Positions 2,586 to 61,578 of a stretch of DNA of 64,000 nucleotides are shown here, one piece after another (position 1 is the stretch's first letter; each line of letters opens with the position of its first letter). The position numbers were made by a program, and so were the translations under genes. The DNA is from Eubacteriales bacterium (GTDB taxonomy: Bacteria; Bacillota; Clostridia; Oscillospirales; CAG-272). Under the pieces are notes generated by a model that was not told where the DNA came from, ran no database searches, and saw only the letters and a program-made list of their open reading frames with translations. The stretch covers positions 53,247-117,246 of the forward strand of contig JAZOUQ010000145.1 of NCBI GenBank assembly GCA_045658185.1, in the 5' to 3' direction.

Positions 2586-2608
2586 ATAATAAAATATATA
2601 AAATTTTC

Positions 2609-2646
2609 CAACCTTTTTCAAAATCCGTGTCTATATGGGTGAAAGC
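2609..2646 (+). promoter_or_regulatory. Candidate ECF-type promoter (copy 1): CAACC-N17-CTATATGGGTGAAAGC
   Basis: The motif is shared with the regions upstream of the other two sigma paralogues (20052-20090, 22028-22066). It ends 20 nt before the GTG start. Confidence 0.45.
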
Positions 2647-2665
2647 TTTCAATAGGAGAAAACAA

Positions 2666-4383: not shown

Positions 4384-5709
4384 TTATTCAAGCTCTCCAG
4401 AAATCGGAGTATTCAATTCAACAAGTTCTTTTTCAACCAATTTTGCAGGTGAATTGCCCTTAACACAATCTGCATCTATCAATACAGATGCCACGTTTTC
4501 ACGTGAGGGAACATCGTACATAATAGGCATCATAAGATTTTCGGTTATAGATCTAAGACCTCTTGCACCCGTATTTCTTTCGATTGCCAAGGCAGCGATT
4601 GCCTCGAGTGCTTCGTTGTCAAATTCAAGCTCCACACCGTCCATCGCAAGTAACTTTTTGTATTGCTTTATAAGGGAGTTTTTAGGCTCACTCAATATTC
4701 TCACAAGTGCATCCTTATCAAGGTCGTCAAGCGGAACTATAACGGGAATACGTCCTACAAGCTCGGGAATAAGTCCAAACTTAACTATATCGTGAGGCGT
4801 AACGTCTTTATAGATACCAACCTTTTGTTTTTCAGCTTTTTTCTTTATTTCGCTTGAAAAACCTATGGTCTGATTTCCTTGGCGTTTTTCGATAAGCTTA
4901 TCAAGTCCAGCGAATGCTCCTTCGCAGATAAACCAAATAATTTCAGTGTTTATCTGAATAAACTCTTGGTTGGGGTGCTTGCGACCGCCTTGAGGAGGTA
5001 CGTTGGCAACAGTGCCTTCCAAAATCTTAAGAAGTGCCTGTTGTACGCCTTCGCCTGATACGTCGCGTGTTATAGAGCGATTTTCACTCTTACGGGCGAT
5101 CTTATCGATTTCATCAATGTAGATAATACCTTTTTCAGCACGCTCTATATCATAATCAGCCGCCTGTATAAGACGGAGAAGAATATTCTCCACGTCCTCA
5201 CCCACGTATCCTGCTTCAGTCAAAGTAGTAGCGTCAGCTATCGCGAAGGGAACTTTAAGCGATTTCGCAAGAGTTTGTGCAAGATAGGTCTTACCAACAC
5301 CGGTATTACCTATAAGAAGAACGTTGCTTTTTTGAAGGTCTATATCCGACTCAATAGTTTCTTTCTTTGCCTTGGCATCGTTTCTGTCTTTATTATAAAG
5401 TATTCTTTTATAATGATTATATACCGCAACAGAAAGAACCTTTTTCGCCTCGTCCTGACCTATAACGTATTCGTCTAAGATACTCTTTATACGTGCGGGC
5501 TTAGGAAGATTGTCAAAAGAAAGATCGTCGCCTACAGCATTTGATACTACAGTATTTTCATATATAAGCTCTTGACACGCATCTACACAAAAATCACAAA
5601 TATAAACGCCGGTAGGGGAAGGAATCAGAAAATTGACTTGATTTTCATTTCTTCCGCAGAATGAACAGTATCTTACGTTTGAACCGTTTGTTGTATTATT
5701 TGAAGCCAT
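4384..5709 (-). CDS. clpX: ATP-dependent Clp protease ATP-binding subunit ClpX
   Basis: N-terminal zinc finger CSFCGR...CDFC, Walker A GNTGVGKT and Walker [10 protein letters not shown]. The start is set at MASNN, with AAAGGA 7 nt upstream. Confidence 0.95.
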
Positions 5710-5729
5710 TTTGGTATCCTTTCGGGAGA

Positions 5730-6341
5730 TCAAGCTCTTTTCTCAAATATTTTGTCGATCAATCCGTATTCAAGAGCCTGCTTTGCAGTCATAAAATTAT
5801 CACGCTCGGTATCTCTTGCAATTTCTTCGATTGAACGTCCCGTATTTTCAGCAAGTATTCTATTAAGATTATCTCTTGTACGCAAGATCAGATCAGCCTG
5901 GATCTTTATATCACTTGCCTGACCCTTTGCACCGCCGAGGGGCTGGTGTATCATTATCTCGCTGTTGGGAAGGGCGATACGTTTGCCTTTCGCACCCGCC
6001 GAAAGCAGAAATGCCCCCATACTTGCTGCCATACCGATACAGATGGTAGATACGTCGCATTTTACGTAATTCATCGTATCGTAAATAGCCATGCCCGCCG
6101 TTACAGAGCCGCCGGGACTGTTAATGTAAAAGCTTATATCCTTATCGGGATCCTGTGCTTCAAGGAAAAGAAGCTGAGCGACAACCAAGGAGGCGGTTGC
6201 GTCATTGACTTCGTCTGACAAGAATATAATTCTATCATTGAGCAGACGGGAAAAAATGTCATAAGAGCGTTCACCCTTACCGGTTTGCTCAACAACCATA
6301 GGCACGAGAGCATTAAACATTTTGTCGTTCATATTAAACAT
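5730..6341 (-). CDS. clpP: ATP-dependent Clp protease proteolytic subunit ClpP
   Basis: [30 protein letters not shown] and MIHQP motifs, with AGGAGG as the RBS. Confidence 0.95.
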
Positions 6342-6373
6342 AACTACCTCCTGTGTCGCTTTAGCGATATAAA

Positions 6374-7657
6374 TTACTTGGTCTTAATGACCGCCTTTTC
6401 CTTAACAAGATCCATTGCCTTCTTGACCTTCATGTCAGCAGCAATAGCCTCGGAATCGATGCTTGCCTTAACCTGATCCAGCTCAACACCGTAAGCATTA
6501 GCAATATTCTGATATTCTTCGTTGATATCATCTTCGGTTGCCTCGATATTTTCAAGGGCAACTATCTTTTCAAGAGCAAGTCTTGCCTTAACCTGACGCT
6601 CTGCCTGAGGTCTCATCTGCTCACGGAGATTGTCAAGGGTAAGACCTGTGTACTTGAAGTAAGTATTGAGGTCAAGTCCCTGAGAACGGAGTCTGTTATC
6701 GTAATCACGAACGAAGTTTTCGGTTTCAGCTACGAACATAGCCTCAGGAATATCTGCCTCCAGCTTTTCGATAAGAGCTTCAACCAGCTTTTCCTCAACT
6801 GCATTATCAGCAGCAGCCTCATATCTCTTTTCGATTTTTGCCTTCAAATCAGCCTTATATTCATCAAATGTATCAAATTCTGATACGTCCTTTGCAAAAT
6901 CGTCATCAAGCTCGGGAAGCTCAACCTTGGTTATAGCGTGTATCTTTACCTTAAATACAGCTTCCTTACCTGCAAGACCTTCTGCGTGGTACTCGGTGGG
7001 GAAGGTTACGTTAACGTCAAATTCCTCATCGATGCTGTGTCCTGCAACCTGCTCCTCAAATCCGGGAATGAAAGAACCCGAACCGAGCTTGAGTGCGTAG
7101 TCGGTACCCTTACCACCCTCGAAAGCTACACCGTCACAGAAGCCCTCAAAGTCAATAACCGCAGTATCGCCCATTTCAGCGGCACGGTCGGTAACTTCGG
7201 TCTCTCTGGAATTTCTCTCTCTTACGGTTTCAATTTCTTTTGCTACGTCCTCATCGGTAACAGCGGTAACTTCCTTTTCAACCTCAATGCCAAGGTAGTC
7301 CTTAATTTCTACGTCAGGCTTTACATAAACCTTTGCAGAAAGAACAAGACCGTTATCGTCGATAGACACGATATCAAACTCAGGCTGACTTACAACGTCA
7401 AGCTTAGCTTCATCAAGTGCCTCTGCGTATGCAGAAGGAATAAGATCGTTGATAGCATCCTCGTAGAATACACCAGTGCCATACATTTTCTCAATAATGG
7501 ACTTGGGTGCTTTTCCTTTTCTGAATCCGGGAACAGTGATAGACTTTACCTGCTTGCGGTAAACCTTATCAACAGCTGCATCAAAGGTAGCTTTATCTAC
7601 CGAAATATGCAGTTCATACTGATTTTTTTCAATCAATTCAGACTTTGTTAAACTCAT
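6374..7657 (-). CDS. tig: Trigger factor
   Basis: The GFRKGKAP ribosome-binding signature, a central FKBP-like domain and the tig-clpP-clpX gene order. Confidence 0.95.
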
Positions 7658-20025: not shown

Positions 20026-20051
20026 GATTATATTTGTTTTTATAAATATTG

Positions 20052-20090
20052 CAACCAAATTTAAAAACACCACACTATATGGATGAAAGG
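20052..20090 (+). promoter_or_regulatory. Candidate ECF-type promoter (copy 2): CAACC-N18-CTATATGGATGAAAGG
   Basis: Same motif as at 2609-2646 and 22028-22066. It ends 10 nt before the ATG at 20101. Confidence 0.45.
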
Positions 20091-20100
20091 AGGCGAGAAA

Positions 20101-21708
20101 ATGCAAGAAACGAATAAAATGCGAGATATGCTTATACATGAGTTTACCGAAAGCTATATGGAAAAGTTGTTTTATTTCTGCTTAAAAAAGACAGGCAGTC
20201 ATGTTCACGCCGAGGATTTGACACAAGATATTGCACTCCAAATCATTACGGCATTGAATAAAGGCACGATTCCAACAAGCTTTTCGGCTTGGGTATGGCA
20301 GATCGCACGCAACCGTTATTCAGTATGGGCAAAAGAAAAGCATAATCGAAACGAAGCGCAAAGCGGTTCAGATATCGGCGATTATGAGATCGAGGACAAG
20401 GGCGAAAATATCCTTGATGAAATGATACATACAGAGCAAATGGCTCTGCTTCGGCGAGAGCTGGCGTTCATCAAAAGTGATTATCGCAACATTGTCGTTG
20501 CCTATTACATAGAAAATAAAAGTATTCGTGATATTGCATCGTCACTTTCGCTTCCTACGAACACGGTAAAGTCACGACTTTTCCGTGCAAGAGAAATTTT
20601 GAAAGAAGGTATGGATATGGCAAGAGAATTTGGTAAACGCAGTTATAACCCAGAGGATATCACTTTTGCTTCAAGTGGTGCTCAACCAAGTGGACTTCCG
20701 TGGCGTGTAGTTCAAAGAAAGATTCCAAAAAACATTTTGCTTCACGCAAATAACAACCCCTCAACGTTAGAAGAAATTTCCATTGAACTGGGTATTGCAC
20801 TTCCCTACATAGAAGAAGAAGTGGAAATTCTACATAAAGCAACACTTCTCGAAAATCAAGGAAACAAATATATAACAAATTTCTTTATATTAGATAAAGA
20901 TTGTCGTATGGAAGCCTATTATGCGTTAAGAAGTGAAGCAAGAGAAAGAAGTCGTCTTATTGGCGAATTTATAGAAGAAAAAATATCGGATATCAGAGAA
21001 TTGGGGATTGCAGGAATGCATATTGACGACAATACCGTTAAATGGTGGTTAGCTCCCAATCTTATTGACTATTTAATTTACAACGGTGTAACAGAACGAC
21101 ATAGTGCTAAACCAATTCAACGTGCTAACGGAGAATCATGGGGATTTGTTGGATACGAAATAACCGAGCTTCCGGAAAAACTGACGATGGGACAAAATGG
21201 AAACGGATCTCAAAAAAGTATGTTTTGGACATATAAGTTCGGTGATTATTCCCTGTGGGATCAATGCGGAGAGCCGAGATATGATGAGGCATTGCTGATG
21301 GCAGAATGTGTTTGTCAAAAACGGTTTGTTACATCTTTAACAGATATTGAGAAAGGAATATGGAAACGTATTGACGGAAAATATGCCCATGCGGACGATA
21401 CCGGGGAGATTATTGCAGATATTCTTGTAATCTCAGAAGATAATCTTAACAAAATACATCAGCTTTTCCGTCAGCATAAAAACTATGAGCAGCTTTCTAA
21501 AAACATAACAAATGCATATAAAAAGGTGGATAAAATTTTCAAGAATTATAGCCATAAAGTTTTACATGATAACCTTAATTATTATATATGCAGTGAGTTA
21601 TATAAAGCGAGAATGATGGCTGTTCACGATTTGGTTGATGACGGTGTTTTGAAATTGCCTGAAGATACAAGTAAATCTTCTTTGGGAATGTACATTATTC
21701 TTAAATAA
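20101..21708 (+). CDS. Sigma-70/ECF-like sigma factor with ~350 aa C-terminal extension (paralogue 2)
   Basis: Region 2 HAEDLTQDIALQI and region 4.2 LPTNTVKSRLFRAREIL. The start is set at the ATG 7 nt after AGGAGG; the listed ATG at 20083 lies inside the promoter motif. Confidence 0.75.
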   Translation: MQETNKMRDMLIHEFTESYMEKLFYFCLKKTGSHVHAEDLTQDIALQIITALNKGTIPTSFSAWVWQIARNRYSVWAKEKHNRNEAQSGSDIGDYEIEDKGENILDEMIHTEQMALLRRELAFIKSDYRNIVVAYYIENKSIRDIASSLSLPTNTVKSRLFRAREILKEGMDMAREFGKRSYNPEDITFASSGAQPSGLPWRVVQRKIPKNILLHANNNPSTLEEISIELGIALPYIEEEVEILHKATLLENQGNKYITNFFILDKDCRMEAYYALRSEARERSRLIGEFIEEKISDIRELGIAGMHIDDNTVKWWLAPNLIDYLIYNGVTERHSAKPIQRANGESWGFVGYEITELPEKLTMGQNGNGSQKSMFWTYKFGDYSLWDQCGEPRYDEALLMAECVCQKRFVTSLTDIEKGIWKRIDGKYAHADDTGEIIADILVISEDNLNKIHQLFRQHKNYEQLSKNITNAYKKVDKIFKNYSHKVLHDNLNYYICSELYKARMMAVHDLVDDGVLKLPEDTSKSSLGMYIILK

Positions 21709-21721
21709 AAAATATAGTCAT

Positions 21722-21919
21722 ATGAACATAGGTAACAACATAAAAAAATTAAGAAAACAAAAGAATTTAACTCAAGCTCATCTTGCTGAAATAATAGGTG
21801 TAAGCTATCAGGCAGTTTCAAAATGGGAGAACAATCGAGGTTATCCGGATATTCAATTGCTTCCCCAAATAGCCAGTGTTTTTGGAGTTTCTATTGATAT
21901 GCTGTTTATTAGCATATAA
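21722..21919 (+). CDS. Small XRE-family HTH protein (65 aa)
   Basis: IKKLRKQKNLTQAHLAEIIGVSYQAVSKWENNRGYPDIQLL is a classic HTH_3 domain. It starts 13 nt after the sigma stop and has no obvious SD. Confidence 0.7.
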   Translation: MNIGNNIKKLRKQKNLTQAHLAEIIGVSYQAVSKWENNRGYPDIQLLPQIASVFGVSIDMLFISI

Positions 21920-21929
21920 AATAAAAACC

Positions 21930-21964
21930 CCGCCGAGAGTAACCGTAATGGTCGCTCTCGGCGG
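21930..21964 (+). terminator. Two-tier hairpin (copy 2 of the conserved sigma 3' element)
   Basis: ccgccgagag/ctctcggcgg stem, a 2x2 internal loop, an ACC/GGT tier and loop gtaat. Confidence 0.6.
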
Positions 21965-22027
21965 TATTTATTATAGACTGATTCACAATTTTATGATATA
22001 ATTATTTTGAAAATATCAAAAAACATC

Positions 22028-22066
22028 TTAACCGTTTTATCTTTTCAACGACTATATGGATGAAGG
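22028..22066 (+). promoter_or_regulatory. Candidate ECF-type promoter (copy 3): TAACC-N18-CTATATGGATGAAGGC
   Basis: Same motif as copies 1 and 2. It ends 15 nt before the ATG at 22082. Confidence 0.45.
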
Positions 22067-22081
22067 CACCTGAAAACGGAA

Positions 22082-23668
22082 ATGGAGAGGCAAATGGATA
22101 GTATAAAACTTGAACAACTGATAACCGAGAATATGAAGTCGATCTTTGGATTTGCACTGACGAGGCTTGGCAATGTAATTGAAGCCGAAGAGCTTGCGAG
22201 CGACATTCTTTATGAGATCATTAAATCCGCAAAAAATCTAAAAGACGAAAATCGTTTTTACGGATTTATGTGGAAGATTGCGGAAAATACCTATATGAAC
22301 TATCTTCGCAAAAAATCAAAAAATGCAAGTCGAACAGCAGAACTTGACGAAAATATTGCCGATAAATCGGACTCTGTTTTGGAGGAATTAATCAAAAAGG
22401 AAGATTTAAATCTGCTTCGTCGGGAACTCTCCTTGTTATCAAAGCAATACCGCGACACTACGGTTTTATACTATTTCGAAGATCTCTCTTGTTCCGAAGT
22501 TGCGGAAAAATTACAGATTAGCACGGAAATGGTAAAGTATTATTTATTCCGTGCAAGAAAATTTATCAGAGAGGGTATGAATATGGAAAGATTATTCGGT
22601 GAAAAAAGCTATCGTCCCGGAAGTTTTGAAATTGATTTTTGGGGAACAAAAGCAGGAGATGACTTTGAATATCGAGATTTTCAAAGAAGAAAGATTAAAG
22701 GAAATATTTTACTTGCAGCATATTATAGCCCGGTAACTATTCAAGAAATAAGCATCGAACTCGGAGTCGCACTTCCCTATCTTGAGGACGAGATCAAACT
22801 GCTTGTTGATCGAGAATATCTCGTGTGCAAAAACGAAAAGTATCTGACCAACATTCCAATCTTCACACTTGATTGCACTAAAACGATTGATGAAAAACTG
22901 AAAGAGCTTACCGAGTATACCGCTAAAAAATTCATAGAAGTTGCGGATAATTTTGACTTGCGTTTTGGTGATCGTTTTGAAAATGAAAATCTTGCCCATT
23001 GGCAAAAGATTCTCTTATGCCTGCACTTTTCATTGATTGACACCGAAAATGATATCAAAAACAACTATGGTGAATTGCCCAAAGACGGACCGTATTCACT
23101 TGTCAACGGTGGAGGCGGACACGGAATCATTTGGGGGCGAAGCACGATAAATGTTGTTGGTGATAAGCATCCGAGAGGAATCCAAGGCATTTATAACGGT
23201 TGCCCTGCGAGTGATAAAAGCGGAAGTGTAATAGCAATGAATTTTAGACAAATCCTTAATGCTCAACACTTTGAGGGGAATATGACCAATCCGGTGGTTT
23301 GTACTGCGGTAGATTGTTATAATCATTTGCCGAAGGATTGGAAGGAACTGCTTGATAAGCTTGGATATGCAAAGAATAGCAAAGCAAACTTTGCTGTTTG
23401 GACGAATGAAGAATACGCTGAACTGCGAAAGATTCTCGTCGAGTGTATTGCCATTGTATCTGAGTTGAATTGCAAAACCTCGGAAATCGCCGCCAATATA
23501 ACTGCTGACCTCGCTCCTGCCCACATCCGAAAAGTCGCAGAATATGTAGGTGCGTTTGTTTACCGCTTCAATTCTATTGACAATTTAATAAACACCTTGT
23601 TTGACATGAATTGGGTGAAATCAGTTGATGAGATGGAAAAACCAGCTATTTGTGTTGTGAAGAATTGA
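22082..23668 (+). CDS. Sigma-70/ECF-like sigma factor with ~350 aa C-terminal extension (paralogue 3)
   Basis: Region 2 EAEELASDILYEI and region 4.2 ISTEMVKYYLFRARKFI. An alternative start at 22094 would give the same N-terminal length as paralogue 1. Confidence 0.75.
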   Translation: MERQMDSIKLEQLITENMKSIFGFALTRLGNVIEAEELASDILYEIIKSAKNLKDENRFYGFMWKIAENTYMNYLRKKSKNASRTAELDENIADKSDSVLEELIKKEDLNLLRRELSLLSKQYRDTTVLYYFEDLSCSEVAEKLQISTEMVKYYLFRARKFIREGMNMERLFGEKSYRPGSFEIDFWGTKAGDDFEYRDFQRRKIKGNILLAAYYSPVTIQEISIELGVALPYLEDEIKLLVDREYLVCKNEKYLTNIPIFTLDCTKTIDEKLKELTEYTAKKFIEVADNFDLRFGDRFENENLAHWQKILLCLHFSLIDTENDIKNNYGELPKDGPYSLVNGGGGHGIIWGRSTINVVGDKHPRGIQGIYNGCPASDKSGSVIAMNFRQILNAQHFEGNMTNPVVCTAVDCYNHLPKDWKELLDKLGYAKNSKANFAVWTNEEYAELRKILVECIAIVSELNCKTSEIAANITADLAPAHIRKVAEYVGAFVYRFNSIDNLINTLFDMNWVKSVDEMEKPAICVVKN

Positions 23669-23680
23669 ATATAAGAACAA

Positions 23681-23715
23681 CCGCCGAGAATAACCGTAAT
23701 GGTCGCTCTCGGCGG
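23681..23715. terminator. Two-tier hairpin (copy 3 of the conserved sigma 3' element), shared with the convergent nfnB-like gene
   Basis: It matches copy 2 at 34 of 35 nt and is followed by tattttttattt. Confidence 0.65.
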
Positions 23716-31108: not shown

Positions 31109-33409
31109 TCAAATACACTCTACTGCTAATTTATCGTTTTCTTCTGAGTATACAACGGATACTGCACTTATAGTCTTATTGTAATCGGAAATTATTTTCT
31201 CGGCTAACTGATCTTCAACGTTTACACGTATAAAACGTCGCATATTTCTTGCACCGAATTTTTGAGAATAAGAATTTTTTGCAATGAATGAAACAACAGC
31301 ATCGGAATAAATCAACTTGATATTTTTTTCCTCAAGTGCCTGTCGCAATTCATTCAGCATGATCACGGCAATTTTCTCAAAATCCTCTACTGTAAGCGAG
31401 TTAAATGTTATGATCTCGTCAATTCTGTTAATAAATTCAGGACGCAAGAAATCAGACAGAGCTTTCATTGTTTTGTCGTCAGAACGTGAATTTTCGGACG
31501 CATAAAAACCGACCGTAGACGAGGTCTTATCGGAACCTGCATTTGTGGTCATAACTATAACCGTATTTTCAAAATTTACTGTCTTACCGCGGGAATCGGT
31601 GATACGACCATCGTCAAGTATTTGCAAAAGTATATTCAGTACATCAGGATGTGCTTTTTCTATTTCGTCGAAAAGAACCACCGAGTATGGGCGACGGCGT
31701 ATTTTTTCCGTAAGCTGTCCCGCCTCATCGTAACCAACGTATCCGGGAGGAGCTCCTATTATTCTTGAAACAGAATGCTTTTCCATAAATTCAGACATAT
31801 CAAGTCTTATGAGAGTTTCGGGGGAATGGAACAGATCCTGTGCCAAGGTTTTTACAAGCTCGGTCTTACCAACTCCGGTAGGACCTGCAAAGATAAAGGA
31901 TACGGGCTTTCTCTTATACGATATCCCTGCTCTGTTGCGTTTGATTGCCTTGGCAACCGCCTCAACCGCTTTATCCTGACCTATAATTCGAGTTTTCAAG
32001 CGTTCTTCAAGCGTATCTATCTGCTCATATTCATTCTTTGAGATGTCTACGGCGGGAATTCCTGTCCAGATTTCTATAACCTGTGCAATATCTTCTTCGG
32101 TTAATGTCACCTGCTCACACGAAGGCTCTAATTCACGAAGTCTTTCGGACAGCTGTATTTCCTTTGCTTTAATTTCAGCGATTTCCTCATAGCATCTTCT
32201 TGAATGATTATCGTCGGTAGGTGCTTCCGCCTCAAGACCTTCTCTCTTTTCTTTGAGAGAAAGCAGTTCTTCTCTTATTTGCTGTGTTTCGTTAAGAACA
32301 GAGCTTGTAAGAGAAAGCTTTGACGCGGCTTCATCCAAAAGGTCTATGGCTTTATCGGGAAGATATCTGTCCATTATATATCTTTCGGACATTATAACCG
32401 CACGGCGAACTACTACATCGGGAATCTTTATAGAATGAAATTCTTCGTAGTAATGCTTGATACCTTCAAGCATTTTTACGGTTTCTTCTATTGACGGTTC
32501 GTTTACGGTTACAGGTTGAAATCTTCTTTCTAACGCGGTATCCTTCTCGATATATTTACGATATTCGTTAAGCGTCGTAGCTCCTATTATTCTCACTTCT
32601 CCACGCGACAGAGCGGGTTTGAGAATGTTAGCTGCATTTACGCTTCCCTCTGCGTCCCCTGTGCCTACGATATTATGAACCTCATCTATAACAAGAATAA
32701 CGTTCCCTGCCGCCTTAACCTCCGACAAAAGTCCAAGAATCCTTGATTCAAACTGCCCTCTGAACTGAGTGCCGGCAACGAGTGCGGTAAGATCAACCAG
32801 ATATATCTGTTTGTCCTTCAATTTGTACGGGACGTTACCGTCAGCAATTTTTTGTGCTAACGCTTCAGCAATAGCTGTTTTACCTACACCGGGTTCACCT
32901 ATAAGACAAGGGTTATTTTTCTGTCGTCTACAAAGTATCTGTATAACACGGTCAAGCTCTTTATCTCTTCCGATTATACGATCCAGCTTTCCATCTGCAG
33001 CACGTTTGGTAAGATTTCGGCAATAGGTATCAAGAAATTTATATTTCTTTTGCTTATCTCCCTTCGAGGTTTCCTTTTTAGGATTCCTTTGTGATAAAAC
33101 GTCCCCTGCATTAGACGGTAAATTAGATTCTCCAAAGAGCTTGGGAAGATCTATCGCAGGTGCTCCACCCTCTTCAATATCGTCATTTTCAGAAGGCGTT
33201 AGAGCCATATTAAGATTTTCTTCCATAGATTCCAGATCGTCTGCGGAAATACCATATTGGTTCATCACGTTTCCCAACATATTGTCTACGGGAATCCCCA
33301 TTTCCTTTGCACAACGTATGCACAAACCATCATTTAACTTGTTTCCGTTTTCTATTTTTGTAACGAAAACTACCGCCACTCTTTTGCGGCATCTTGAACA
33401 CATTACCAT
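31109..33409 (-). CDS. ClpC/ClpA-family double-AAA+ unfoldase with N-terminal CxxC...CxxC zinc ribbon instead of a Clp_N domain
   Basis: D1 GEPGVGKT/VIDEVH and D2 GPTGVGKT/LFDEIEKAH, a short coiled-coil M-domain, a VGF loop, and the N-terminus CSRCRKR...CIRCAKE. Confidence 0.85.
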   Translation of the reverse strand: MVMCSRCRKRVAVVFVTKIENGNKLNDGLCIRCAKEMGIPVDNMLGNVMNQYGISADDLESMEENLNMALTPSENDDIEEGGAPAIDLPKLFGESNLPSNAGDVLSQRNPKKETSKGDKQKKYKFLDTYCRNLTKRAADGKLDRIIGRDKELDRVIQILCRRQKNNPCLIGEPGVGKTAIAEALAQKIADGNVPYKLKDKQIYLVDLTALVAGTQFRGQFESRILGLLSEVKAAGNVILVIDEVHNIVGTGDAEGSVNAANILKPALSRGEVRIIGATTLNEYRKYIEKDTALERRFQPVTVNEPSIEETVKMLEGIKHYYEEFHSIKIPDVVVRRAVIMSERYIMDRYLPDKAIDLLDEAASKLSLTSSVLNETQQIREELLSLKEKREGLEAEAPTDDNHSRRCYEEIAEIKAKEIQLSERLRELEPSCEQVTLTEEDIAQVIEIWTGIPAVDISKNEYEQIDTLEERLKTRIIGQDKAVEAVAKAIKRNRAGISYKRKPVSFIFAGPTGVGKTELVKTLAQDLFHSPETLIRLDMSEFMEKHSVSRIIGAPPGYVGYDEAGQLTEKIRRRPYSVVLFDEIEKAHPDVLNILLQILDDGRITDSRGKTVNFENTVIVMTTNAGSDKTSSTVGFYASENSRSDDKTMKALSDFLRPEFINRIDEIITFNSLTVEDFEKIAVIMLNELRQALEEKNIKLIYSDAVVSFIAKNSYSQKFGARNMRRFIRVNVEDQLAEKIISDYNKTISAVSVVYSEENDKLAVECI

Positions 33410-47711: not shown

Positions 47712-47798
47712 GCCGGTGTGATGGAATTGGCAGACGTGCTGGACTCAAAATCCAGTGGTAGCGATACCGTGTCGGTTCGACCCCGACCACCGGCACCA
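47712..47798 (+). tRNA. tRNA-Leu (anticodon CAA), type II with long variable arm, CCA encoded
   Basis: Acceptor GCCGGTG/CACCGGC, anticodon stem-loop CTGGA-CTCAAAA-TCCAG, variable arm TGGTAGCGATACCGTG, T arm GTCGG-TTCGACC-CCGAC and a 3' ACCA. Confidence 0.9.
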
Positions 47799-58201: not shown

Positions 58202-58356
58202 ATTATACCTCCTATGACAAACTATCTATATAATTATACCACATCTTTATAAAAAAATAAAGATGATTATAAAATAAAAATCAAAAAGGAAAATACATCA
58301 AATCGTTCATATTGCTGTCATTTTTTTGCGATATAATAAAAAATACAAAAAACCTC

Positions 58357-58387
58357 TTGACTTTACAGTTAACTATAATGTTATAAT
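58357..58387 (+). promoter_or_regulatory. MerR-type promoter: TTGACT - 19-bp spacer with central palindrome - TATAAT
   Basis: The spacer ttacagttaactataatgt contains the perfect palindrome AGTTAACT. Extended to TACAGTTAACTATA, it matches at 12 of 14 positions. Confidence 0.55.
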
Positions 58388-58408
58388 TGTATCATAGGAG
58401 GCGATGAC

Positions 58409-59506
58409 ATGATAAAAATAGGTGATTTGGCAAAGATTTGCAATGTAAGTACGCAAACTTTACGATATTATGACTCTGAAGGCATATTAAAAGCAGATGT
58501 AACCGATTCGTCAAGTGGATATAGATTTTATTCGATTGATGCCGTAGAAAGATATAAACAGATATTATTCTATAAGAACATTGGTTTTTCTCTGGACGAA
58601 ATCAAAAAAATACAGCTGGCATCAAGCGAAGAACTACGATATATTTTACAACAGAAAAAAGAGGTATTATCTCAATCTATTGGCAAATTTAAAAATCAGA
58701 TAAAAATAATCGATGACCTGTGCGGAGGAGATTTGGCAAAGCCTATTTTGTCAGAAACTCTTCTCCTTCCATTTGAAAATGATTCGCAAGTTGTCGGAAA
58801 ATGGTGTCTGTGCGGAAAGCTCCTTAACGAGAACAATTTGATGTCTTGGGAAAAAGTAAATGAGAATATTGCCGACAAAGAGATAATATTTATGCCTGGC
58901 GGAACTTTTGCATGGAAATATTTTTGGACTAAAGGAACACTGTATAGAATATCACCAAAATACAAATTTGCAATTCCTAATTTGTATAGAACGATCGAGC
59001 AGAACGGAACCCGATATATGATCATTCAATTTTTGAGTGATGATTGCATTGACAACGGAGAAGATACGATAATGCTCCTGTATCGTCAAATTGATACTAT
59101 TGCATATACCGAACACCAAATCCGCCCCAACATAGACAAAACGGATCTTCCGTTTGTAGATGATGAATCGGTTCACGGTGTATGGACTGCTTTTGATTTT
59201 GTACCTAAAATATCAGATTTTGAGCCTCACAAAAAATTTAGCGAGGATAAGGATATTTACATGGTGAATATTCGTTTCTTACCCCGTGGAATATGTAAAA
59301 GAATGATTCGTACTATGTCGGGAACTGCCAACTTTATGTTGCGATATACCAAAGGGTTTGTTCTTGACGATAAGGAAATGACAGCCGAAGAATATCAGAT
59401 CCAAACAATAAACGGTAAGGATTTTCTTTTTGTACAACACAAATCCGGAGATTATTTTTACGGCGGTTTGACACCGCATTGGTATGTTTTTGAAAGAAAA
59501 ATATAG
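58409..59506 (+). CDS. MerR family transcriptional regulator with large duplicated C-terminal domain
   Basis: IGDLAKICNVSTQTLRYYDSEGIL...GYRFYS is the MerR HTH. AGGAGG lies 7 nt upstream. Confidence 0.8.
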   Translation: MIKIGDLAKICNVSTQTLRYYDSEGILKADVTDSSSGYRFYSIDAVERYKQILFYKNIGFSLDEIKKIQLASSEELRYILQQKKEVLSQSIGKFKNQIKIIDDLCGGDLAKPILSETLLLPFENDSQVVGKWCLCGKLLNENNLMSWEKVNENIADKEIIFMPGGTFAWKYFWTKGTLYRISPKYKFAIPNLYRTIEQNGTRYMIIQFLSDDCIDNGEDTIMLLYRQIDTIAYTEHQIRPNIDKTDLPFVDDESVHGVWTAFDFVPKISDFEPHKKFSEDKDIYMVNIRFLPRGICKRMIRTMSGTANFMLRYTKGFVLDDKEMTAEEYQIQTINGKDFLFVQHKSGDYFYGGLTPHWYVFERKI

Positions 59507-60765: not shown

Positions 60766-61578
60766 TTATAGTTTTATTGGATAATCACCGTATCCCATAC
60801 AGCAAGAAACGCCCTTTAATGAATACCTTTGCATTTCAATCGTAGCTATAAGAATACACAAACAAGTGTGATACATACTATTGATTTCATAAGTGAATCC
60901 CAAAGATTTATGCTTTGATTTCTTTTCTATTACAAATTTTGATTTTATCAACTCATCAAGAGAAGCTCGCAGTCTACCATCGTCAAAGCCTAACTTTTCT
61001 TGCATTTCACCAAAACTAATGTCACTCATAGATATGATTGCCATACAAACGAGAAGATTGTTTTTCTCTGACAAAACGGGCAATATAGTTTGTGCGAATT
61101 CAACAGTATCTGTATTTATATTTTCAAAAAAAGTCCTTGTCAAAATTGCTCCATAACCTTTTCCAGATAACAGCGACAATCCGTTTTCATTTGAAATGTG
61201 GGCAGGCGCATCATAAATTGAAGAATCTCTACCTTTAAGATTGCCCCAAGAAATTCCGTGATGAGCGTAGCCGAATATCTTCAATACATCTTCATACGCT
61301 TGCTTACTCATTTGATTGGGAAGTTTTTTTATTTTTTGAAATACCTTTTCATAAATCTCATCATAGGTCATTTCTTCACCATAATACAGATAATCAATGC
61401 TAACACCGAAAAAATCCGCAATAAGAGGCAAAGTTTGCGTGTCAGGCTGAGATGTATTAGTTTCCCACTTTGATACTGCTTGTGGAGATACGTTAAGTGC
61501 AATAGCTAATTGCTCTTGTGTAATACCTTTTTGTTTTCTGAGAACAACTATGTTTTTTGAAATGTTAATTTCTTTCAT
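60766..61578 (-). CDS. XRE-family HTH regulator with ~200 aa C-terminal domain
   Basis: LRKQKGITQEQLAIALNVSPQAVSKWETNTSQPD is the HTH_3 domain. I do not recognise the C-terminal part. Confidence 0.75.
   Translation of the reverse strand: MKEINISKNIVVLRKQKGITQEQLAIALNVSPQAVSKWETNTSQPDTQTLPLIADFFGVSIDYLYYGEEMTYDEIYEKVFQKIKKLPNQMSKQAYEDVLKIFGYAHHGISWGNLKGRDSSIYDAPAHISNENGLSLLSGKGYGAILTRTFFENINTDTVEFAQTILPVLSEKNNLLVCMAIISMSDISFGEMQEKLGFDDGRLRASLDELIKSKFVIEKKSKHKSLGFTYEINSMYHTCLCILIATIEMQRYSLKGVSCCMGYGDYPIKL

Follow-up and report, generated by a model that had tools for sequence, protein, structure and literature searches.

A 64,000-nt stretch of DNA from an Eubacteriales bacterium (assembly GCA_045658185.1, contig JAZOUQ010000145.1, positions 53,247 to 117,246; the whole stretch is referred to below as the window) carries three copies of a short promoter-like element, each of which precedes a long open reading frame (ORF) coding for a protein of 524-556 aa with an extracytoplasmic function (ECF)-type sigma domain and a C-terminal domain of ~360 aa. 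We refer to these genes as sig1, sig2 and sig3. Judging from sequence comparison, the three copies are very probably the cognate, positively autoregulated promoters of the sigma genes that follow them. An autoregulated ECF-type promoter before each gene, as proposed in a first-pass annotation of this DNA, is supported by the position of the element, by its geometry, by its conservation in relatives chosen by protein similarity and, above all, by the co-variation of its -35 box with the region-4.2 recognition helix of the downstream gene. ECF factors usually autoregulate, which is the basis of routine ECF promoter prediction (PMC7826278).

Position, conservation and co-variation of the element

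The pattern AACC-N17/18-CTATATGG, searched on both strands, matches the window three times where 0.03 matches are expected, and three matches were reached in 0 of 100 shuffles, which bears out the three copies described in the first-pass annotation. The 15-nt core CTATATGGRTGAARG has three exact matches in the window, and all other matches to it need two or three mismatches. The identities reported earlier for the 16-nt downstream block, 14 of 16 positions for copy 1 versus copy 2 and for copy 2 versus copy 3, are correct; the span given for copy 3 (22028-22066) is off by one base and should read 22029-22067. All three copies are oriented toward the directly downstream sigma gene, and all three sites lie 3' of the terminator (hairpin and T-run) of the preceding gene and 26-42 nt before the ECF-type gene. 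Since the three proteins are mutually only ~25% identical, the DNA identity of the motif copies is not explained by shared descent alone. An earlier statement that each block ends 10-20 nt before the start codon fails for sig3: because the upstream ATG at 22082 is not kept in the orthologue in locus L111, we place the sig3 start at ATG 22094, and the block therefore ends 26 nt before it.

The ATGs inside the block had been described as lying in different frames relative to the genes. The ATG shared by all copies (block index 4-6) is indeed out of frame in 3/3, whereas the second ATG of copy 2 (20083) is in frame and gives a 541-aa reading of sig2. Several database homologues are 540-542 aa long and may reflect the same alternative start call; the start at 20101 is favoured because GAAAGGAGG-N7-ATG is conserved. 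A short upstream ORF in the block (MGESFQ / MDE...) was rejected: it is the nucleotides that are conserved, synonymous changes do not occur, the G/D change alters the amino acid, and the ORF does not keep a constant frame with respect to the gene. The window holds no fourth copy, in line with the earlier finding for its intergenic regions: four looser AAC-N18/19-CTATA matches lie within genes or in a MerR-type promoter. Among these, the match at 31534 was rejected as being inside a gene on the other strand and the match at 58351 as being the long-spacer promoter of a MerR-family gene. The MerR-family regulator gene occupies 58409-59506, and the TTGACT...TATAAT promoter upstream of it (58351-58408), with a spacer of ~19 nt, is of the MerR-promoter type and accounts for one loose AAC-N19-CTATA match.

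The element is not of the TTGACA-N17-TATAAT type, as had been stated: a consensus scan (TTGACA-N16-18-TATAAT) finds no plus-strand sigmaA site at the three motifs. The C of AAC precedes the C of CTATAT by 20 nt in sig2 and sig3 and by 19 nt in sig1, which reads TGTC at the location of the -10 C. The preferred promoter of Escherichia coli sigmaE is GGAACTT-N16-TCAAA, with a discriminator of 5 or 6 nt and a purine start (PMC1312014), and the C of its AAC therefore lies 20 nt before the C of TCAAA. Applying the sigmaE discriminator length, we predict that transcription starts at the G of Y-GAAAG (block index 9-10), which corresponds to positions 2641, 20085 and 22062 of the window. The 16-nt block, previously treated as one element, is better described as a composite of a -10 element, a purine discriminator, the predicted start (Y-G) and the first transcript bases.

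The element recurs in relatives that were selected without reference to it. We examined 80 metagenome loci chosen by protein similarity to sig2 (38-70% identity) and not by motif, and found the element in about 76-78 of them, nearly all reading ACACTATATgrrTGAAAGGAGG ~26 nt before the start codon. It is also present in 11/12 further family genes lying in other collected loci (again not motif-selected) and in 4/4 sig1 orthologues picked by protein only (58-74% identity). Per-base counts were obtained from 42 protein-selected sites with less than 85% mutual identity. Each base of CTATAT occurs in 39-42 of these 42 sites and the three preceding bases are mostly ACA, so that the family -10 element can be written (a)CaCTATAT; purines occupy index 6-8 and a pyrimidine index 9, G is found at index 10 in 40/42, and index 10-14 read GAAAG with 34-41/42 per base. 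The spacer between the -35 and -10 boxes is variable, and even the 93%-identical sig2 orthologue differs in the spacer and upstream of the element.

The heptamer found at a fixed distance from CTATAT falls into classes (TGCAACC, TGCACCC, TGTCAGC, TGTCCCC, TGTAACC, TGCAATn, TGAAACC, TCCAACC and CTTAACC), and the class goes with the sequence of the region-4.2 recognition helix of the downstream gene; where the heptamer is TCCAACC, for example, the helix is TVKWHLFEA in 18/18 representatives. AACC, which had been taken as a shared signature, is only one -35 class, tied to Phe at the position of sigmaE F175, and other family members read CACCC, TCAGC, TCCCC or CAAT. In a set of 86 genes less than 85% identical to each other, each alignment column within residues 1-190 (~170 columns) was tested against the heptamer. 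Shuffle-corrected mutual information is highest for S158, F161 and R159 (sig2 numbering), in that order, and R162 ranks ninth. R162 occurs with G at heptamer position 2 (44/46) and E162 with C (27/31). At position 3, S158 goes with C (19/19), Q or K at 158 with T (19/20) and T158 with A (4/5); at position 5, F161 goes with A (54/55) and L or Q at 161 with C (9/9); K157 occurs with C at position 6 (63/69). Residues 157, 158, 161 and 162 align with R171, S172, F175 and R176 of sigmaE, which contact -35 bases in the crystal structure of region 4 with DNA, and the pairing of Ser or Thr at sigmaE 172 with G or A at -34 has already been noted (PMC1540707). The gene RUMAL_RS18960 of Ruminococcus albus 7, whose product is 31% identical to sig3, fits the resulting residue-to-base table (helix MVKYLLFQS, heptamer CCTAACC), though it was not used to build it.

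That the signal centres on the DNA-reading helix is expected of cognate promoters and not of a shared master regulator. If a single master sigma factor or some other regulator, and not the three encoded proteins, were to read the motif and co-regulate all paralogues, one would understand why the -10 part and the bases after it are equal in clades only 25% identical and why AACC is common to all three window copies. A single trans-acting factor does not, however, predict a -35 box that varies in step with the recognition helix of the downstream gene, and the invariant -10 element matches conserved region-2 residues (W66, A69 and N71), so that we regard such a regulator as very unlikely. Promoters of the sporulation sigma factors (E, F, G and K) were also rejected, since the element departs from their consensus sequences and the variability of its -35 box speaks against them.

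Several observations weigh against the autoregulated-promoter reading. Phylogeny partly confounds the co-variation, with background columns at 1.5-1.9 bits compared with 1.9-2.5 bits for the helix, and for heptamer position 2 alone several non-helix columns score equally high, which is attributed to the fact that this position splits the deepest clades. About a quarter of the family genes have a sigmaA-type promoter just upstream, and in these the element is also transcribed as leader RNA. The conservation of GAAAG after the predicted start and the palindrome of the sig1 and sig3 clades exceed what -10 and -35 promoter function needs, and looser searches of the 64-kb window gave no other credible target site. 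Finally, position, conservation, geometry and co-variation are what the sequences show, and the start site, the dependence on these sigma factors, in vivo autoregulation and the part played by the C-terminal domain are predictions.

If the copies are cognate promoters, sigma region 4.2 would read the 7-bp -35 box (TCCAACC for sig1, TGCAACC for sig2 and CTTAACC for sig3) and region 2 the family-wide -10 element (a)CaCTATAT, and transcription would start ~10 nt after the -10 C, at the G of Y-GAAAG. The activity of the sigma protein would presumably be gated by the fused C-terminal domain, as none of the genes has an anti-sigma gene beside it. Phe161, and with it AAC, is common to the three paralogues; what sets them apart is residues 158, 159 and 162 as well as the 5' half of their boxes, and each therefore probably prefers its own promoter, with some cross-talk between paralogues being possible. 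The features are listed in the table below.

Features of the three sigma-gene loci (window coordinates; L numbers designate collected loci)
Feature	Position	Strand	Remarks
sig1 promoter, -35 heptamer TCCAACC	2607..2613	+	window motif; kept in 4/4 protein-chosen sig1 orthologues
sig1 promoter, -10 element TGTCTATAT	2628..2636	+	C2631 taken as equivalent of the C in sigmaE TCAAA; AAC-to-C 19 nt
sig1 purine discriminator GGG, then T-G	2637..2641	+	predicted start G2641, from site alignment and sigmaE geometry
sig1 perfect 12-nt inverted repeat TGAAAGCTTTCA	2640..2651	+	left arm within the block of the first-pass annotation
sig1 gene, GTG start, 556 aa	2666..4336	+	ECF sigma domain and C-terminal domain; P0121 identical
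sig2 promoter, -35 heptamer TGCAACC	20050..20056	+	class pairs with helix VKS(R/K/N)LF
sig2 promoter, -10 element ACACTATAT	20072..20080	+	C20075; AAC-to-C 20 nt
Predicted 5' end of sig2 mRNA, identical with extended Shine-Dalgarno GAAAGGAGG	20085..20093	+	start codon 20101
sig2 gene, 535 aa	20101..21708	+	
65-aa XRE/HTH_3 gene	21722..21919	+	14 nt after sig2; probably co-transcribed from the sig2 promoter
sigmaA-type promoter TAGACT-N17-(TG)ATATAAT (TAGACT-N17-TGATATAAT)	21974..22002	+	upstream of the sig3 ECF promoter, tandem arrangement
sig3 promoter, -35 heptamer CTTAACC	22027..22033	+	pairs with helix MVKYYLF
sig3 promoter, -10 element CGACTATAT	22049..22057	+	C22052; predicted start G22062; kept in 82% orthologue in L042
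sig3 gene, 524 aa	22094..23668	+	
Loci with a sigmaA-type promoter upstream of the ECF-type promoter			window sig3; L022-L036, L039, L042, L084, L200, L203, L204

Possible alternative and additional roles of the conserved block

Downstream of the -10 element the family divides into two kinds of sites. In the sig2 clade the transcript is predicted to begin with the ribosome site GAAAGGAGG, which is 7-8 nt upstream of the ATG, and the leader would therefore be ~16 nt long. Genes of the sig1 clade and most sig3-like genes have their ribosome site further down, and in them GAAAG forms the left arm of an inverted repeat, mostly the 12-mer TGAAAGCTTTCA. In the unique sites selected by protein, we counted repeats that are anchored at index 9-12 and have arms of 4 nt or more: they are present in 10/18 sites with a distant ribosome site versus 0/39 sites with a fused one. 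The arms vary by lineage yet stay complementary (TGAAAG/CTTTCA, TGAAC/GTTCA, GAAAAGC-aaagc-GCTTTTC, GTGAAAGCGCTTTCAC and a 17-bp stem in L104), and the R. albus repeat CAGAAGCTTCTG (CAGAAG/CTTCTG; L204 2411-2422, R. albus 7 pRUMAL02) differs from TGAAAGCTTTCA by three symmetric double changes, with the centre AAGCTT retained. The spacing between arms ranges from 0 to 17 nt across sites, and the sig3 copy in the window has a degenerate inverted repeat only.

The tandem arrangement of sig3, in which a sigmaA-type promoter precedes the ECF-type one, is not confined to this gene. In 22/83 family representatives a perfect TGnTATAAT is present in the 85 nt that precede the -35 box, and it usually ends 9-15 nt before the box. 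Together with the inverted repeat that follows the block wherever the ribosome site is not fused, this arrangement is what one would expect if the conserved block acted in RNA, as a riboregulator or protein-binding site in the 5' untranslated region of a transcript begun further upstream, and were not a promoter. Most family genes, including sig1 and sig2, nevertheless have no recognisable upstream promoter and only a preceding terminator, and co-variation with sigma region 4 is a DNA-protein signature. At the level of RNA structure, an Rfam scan of the window returned one tRNA only, with no match at the motifs; RNAalifold found no consensus structure (energy 0) over 41 diverse sites, and the window leaders fold no better than shuffles. 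The common 12-mer hairpin, considered as RNA, is very weak, with an energy of only -0.6 kcal/mol. We therefore judge an exclusively RNA-level role to be highly improbable. RNA-feasible stems exceed shuffles in only 4/29 leader types, and a 5' stem-loop in the RNA as a general explanation of the palindrome was kept only as a weak option in view of these stem counts, the hairpin energy and the missing alignment consensus.

The neighbourhood of sig3 also bears on the question of whether the motif might be the conserved end of a mobile or duplicating gene cassette, that is, a dispersed repeat with no regulatory role. Two copies of one 35-nt terminator hairpin, ccgccgaga[g/a]taaccgtaatggtcgctctcggcgg, bracket the sig3 unit (21930-21964 and 23681-23715), and the closest relative (L199, contig of P0001; sig2 93% identical) has the same gene order with one hairpin copy and no sig3. 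The sig3 cassette is thus an insertion or deletion relative to this relative, which, together with the bracketing hairpins, indicates that whole promoter-gene-terminator units are gained or lost. In keeping with a mobile cassette, the same hairpin and sigmaA-type promoter precede family genes in other genomes, and one family member resides on a conjugative megaplasmid. What is conserved, on the other hand, are only short promoter-spaced blocks, with the spacer and flanks diverging even at 93% protein identity, and the element always points to the gene at a fixed distance, which argues that the motif is not a mere repeat; neutral DNA would be randomised between paralogues that are ~25% identical, and there were no phage matches. 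A cassette end without regulatory function is, in our judgement, exceedingly improbable.

A role that would be additional to the promoter deserves more weight. Y-GAAAG and the inverted repeat may constitute a second control element, either the operator of a dimeric repressor at the start site or an mRNA-protecting 5' stem or ribosome-docking site; we consider this a serious possibility that falls somewhat short of probable. The conservation of GAAAG, the occurrence of repeats at distant but not at fused ribosome sites and the complementarity of arms that differ in sequence all point in this direction. In Bacillus subtilis, a strong ribosome site or a 5' stem is reported to shield mRNA from RNase J1 (PMC5737220; works cited in PMC3997798). 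Against such an element stand the small share of leader types with stems above shuffles, the degenerate state of the sig3 copy and the variable arm spacing, which is unlikely for a single dimeric protein. Known operators give no better match. The CcpA cre site is the 14-nt TGWAANCGNTNWCA and the Rex box is TTGTGAA-N4-TTCACAA, and both were rejected for the repeat, as TGAAAGCTTTCA is without a central CG, the arm spacing varies and the half-sites do not fit. The winged helix in the C-terminal domain of the sigma proteins themselves was rejected as the palindrome binder, too: its third helix, which occupies the recognition-helix position, is acidic, with Y236, E238 and E240 invariant, and this winged helix-turn-helix is the only part of the domain that matches solved structures, all of them of the ArsR/SmtB type.

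A stronger form of this proposal, that of a three-part promoter made up of -35, -10 and a dedicated Y-GAAAG/inverted-repeat control element, appears unlikely to us. The third part may be a self-complementary 5' end or an operator, bound either by a dimeric factor or by the sigma factor's own C-terminal domain. If true, such a control element would establish a hierarchy or feedback between the many paralogues of gut Clostridia.

Sigma proteins, genomic neighborhoods and candidate targets

Residues 1-170 of sig1-sig3 match Pfam Sigma70_r2 and Sigma70_r4_2 and score above the cut-off of TIGR02937, with no region 3 or 1.1. They match no named NCBIfam equivalog, with scores far below the SigW, SigM and SigX cut-offs; the best PDB sequence match of the sigma domain is B. 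subtilis SigW (5wuq, E = 1e-18), and the PDB matches are ECF factors only. No Pfam family matches the remaining ~360 residues. The C-terminal domain (residues ~185-535, e.g. window 20653-21705) is nevertheless predicted with confidence (predicted local distance difference test, pLDDT, 92.9; predicted template modelling score, pTM, 0.90), and ~65 of its residues resemble an ArsR/SmtB-type winged helix in the model, e.g. that of CzrA, with a root-mean-square deviation of 2.3 A. For the other ~270 residues, Foldseek gave no PDB match at E <= 0.001.

No anti-sigma gene adjoins sig1-sig3, whose neighbors code for a CobW-like GTPase, ClpX, a DUF624 protein, the 65-aa XRE/HTH_3 protein and an oxidoreductase. 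Their extension past region 4 (~360 aa, well over the 50 aa taken as a threshold) and the lack of a neighboring anti-sigma gene make the three proteins ECF factors with a C-terminal extension. Searches with the sig1 and sig2 proteins each yielded over 2,000 clusters (90% identity), for the most part from Clostridia of the gut and rumen, and the named relatives are annotated as 'sigma-70 family RNA polymerase sigma factor', from metagenome-assembled genomes of Clostridia, Eubacteriales or Ruminococcaceae. The XRE/HTH_3 gene after sig2 is also found in the closest relative, yet it follows only 2/43 sig2-type genes in other loci, and it was therefore rejected as a conserved sig2 partner or operator-binding protein. 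A 60%-identical homologue of the 65-aa protein is encoded near 61569 (minus strand). The ClpX gene (4384-5733, minus strand), confirmed by Pfam, is convergent to sig1, and the next two ORFs beyond it (203 aa and 427 aa; window 4384-7657, minus strand) have the sizes expected for ClpP and trigger factor and are candidates for these by size. The only Rfam match in the window is the single tRNA gene at 47712-47795.

We scanned 185,579 species genomes with the full pattern. Among the 118 loci listed as matches, for which our own rough estimate is ~35 chance matches, a family gene lies directly downstream in 95 (67 sig1-like, 21 sig2-like and 7 sig3-like). Four or five further loci among those listed are of the same type on truncated contigs, one (L126) has the motif before a different, short ECF-like sigma factor, and ~12 are chance matches inside unrelated genes of other phyla. 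The listed matches also include four intergenic loci before non-sigma genes, in which the ribosome site is fused to the element as in sig2. These four motif-bearing genes, which code for a DUF4349 lipoprotein (L155), a DUF4097 protein (L169), a DUF4367-like membrane protein (L182) and a small XRE regulator followed by an S8 peptidase (L161), are candidate regulon members by virtue of the motif sequence. The private regulon suggested earlier stays hypothetical: the window has no other site, and other genomes offer, among the matches listed, only four or five candidate non-sigma targets. Since the scan pattern demanded the whole block, targets sharing only the -35 and -10 elements would be missed.

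Relation to known systems and significance

The mechanism is an ordinary ECF arrangement and not a new kind of mechanism. The closest parallel in geometry is E. coli sigmaE (RpoE), with which the family shares an AAC-containing -35 element, a -10 element whose C follows that of AAC by ~20 nt, a short discriminator and a start at a purine (predicted here), as well as the same four helix positions tracking -35 bases. The family differs from sigmaE in its -10 element, (a)CaCTATAT versus GGTCAAA, in the bases upstream of AAC (TGC, TCC or CTT versus GG), in its hosts, Clostridia versus Proteobacteria, and in having a C-terminal domain of ~360 aa and no RseA-type anti-sigma gene nearby.

In B. subtilis, the sigW promoter reads TGAAAC-N16-CGTATA, and sigM and sigX have an extra sigmaA promoter. 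The autoregulated ECF promoters of B. subtilis resemble the element described here in their Firmicute host, the TGnAAC form of the -35 box and the TATA-like tail of the -10 element, and sigM and sigX, like the tandem loci, have a basal sigmaA promoter and, downstream of it, an ECF promoter ahead of the sigma gene. The -10 core here is, however, ACT or GTC followed by ATAT, with a spacing 2-3 nt longer than for the CGTA of sigW, and the genes are monocistronic or have a small HTH gene behind them, with no anti-sigma gene in that place.

Among the ways in which ECF factors are controlled, the fused C-terminal extension ranks second in frequency (PMC7826278). Groups ECF41, ECF42 and ECF56 likewise combine a sigma2-sigma4 core with a long C-terminal extension and have no adjacent anti-sigma gene, whereas the extension described here is not SnoaL-like, TPR or Cys-rich and consists of an ArsR-like winged helix plus ~270 aa without a solved-structure match. 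Group ECF262 of the Casas-Pastor classification, with an R. albus example (SFB89493.1), is listed among the extension-bearing ECFs of 'other' type (PMC8999054), and R. albus 7 carries the family member RUMAL_RS18960 on pRUMAL02; another cultured carrier of the family is Hydrogeniiclostridium mannosilyticum ASD2818. The family may be ECF262, which we mention as a lead only, and the motif may already be predicted on ECF Hub.

The leaders of the sig2 type have a parallel of their own. In the STAB-SD or 5' mRNA stabiliser of Bacillus, GAAAGGAGG lies near the 5' end of the mRNA. The predicted 5' end of sig2-type mRNAs is likewise GAAAGGAGG, a 9-nt match to the tail of 16S rRNA, with the difference that here it also serves as the ribosome site, at 7-8 nt from the start codon. 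That GAAAGGAGG stabilises sig2-type mRNAs is only our conjecture.

To this background the present analysis adds the motif, a table linking residues to bases that is based on natural variants, the anatomy of the composite block, a confident model in which most of the C-terminal extension is without a solved relative, and the start-site repeat. The residue-to-base table supplies natural variants to the specificity rules used for engineering orthogonal ECF switches. For this very large, uncharacterised ECF family, a fixed -10 element together with a -35 box that can be read from four helix residues provides a usable promoter model. With it, cross-talk between paralogues can be judged from sequence and regulons become predictable genome by genome, the first candidates being the DUF4349, DUF4097, DUF4367-like and XRE-type genes.

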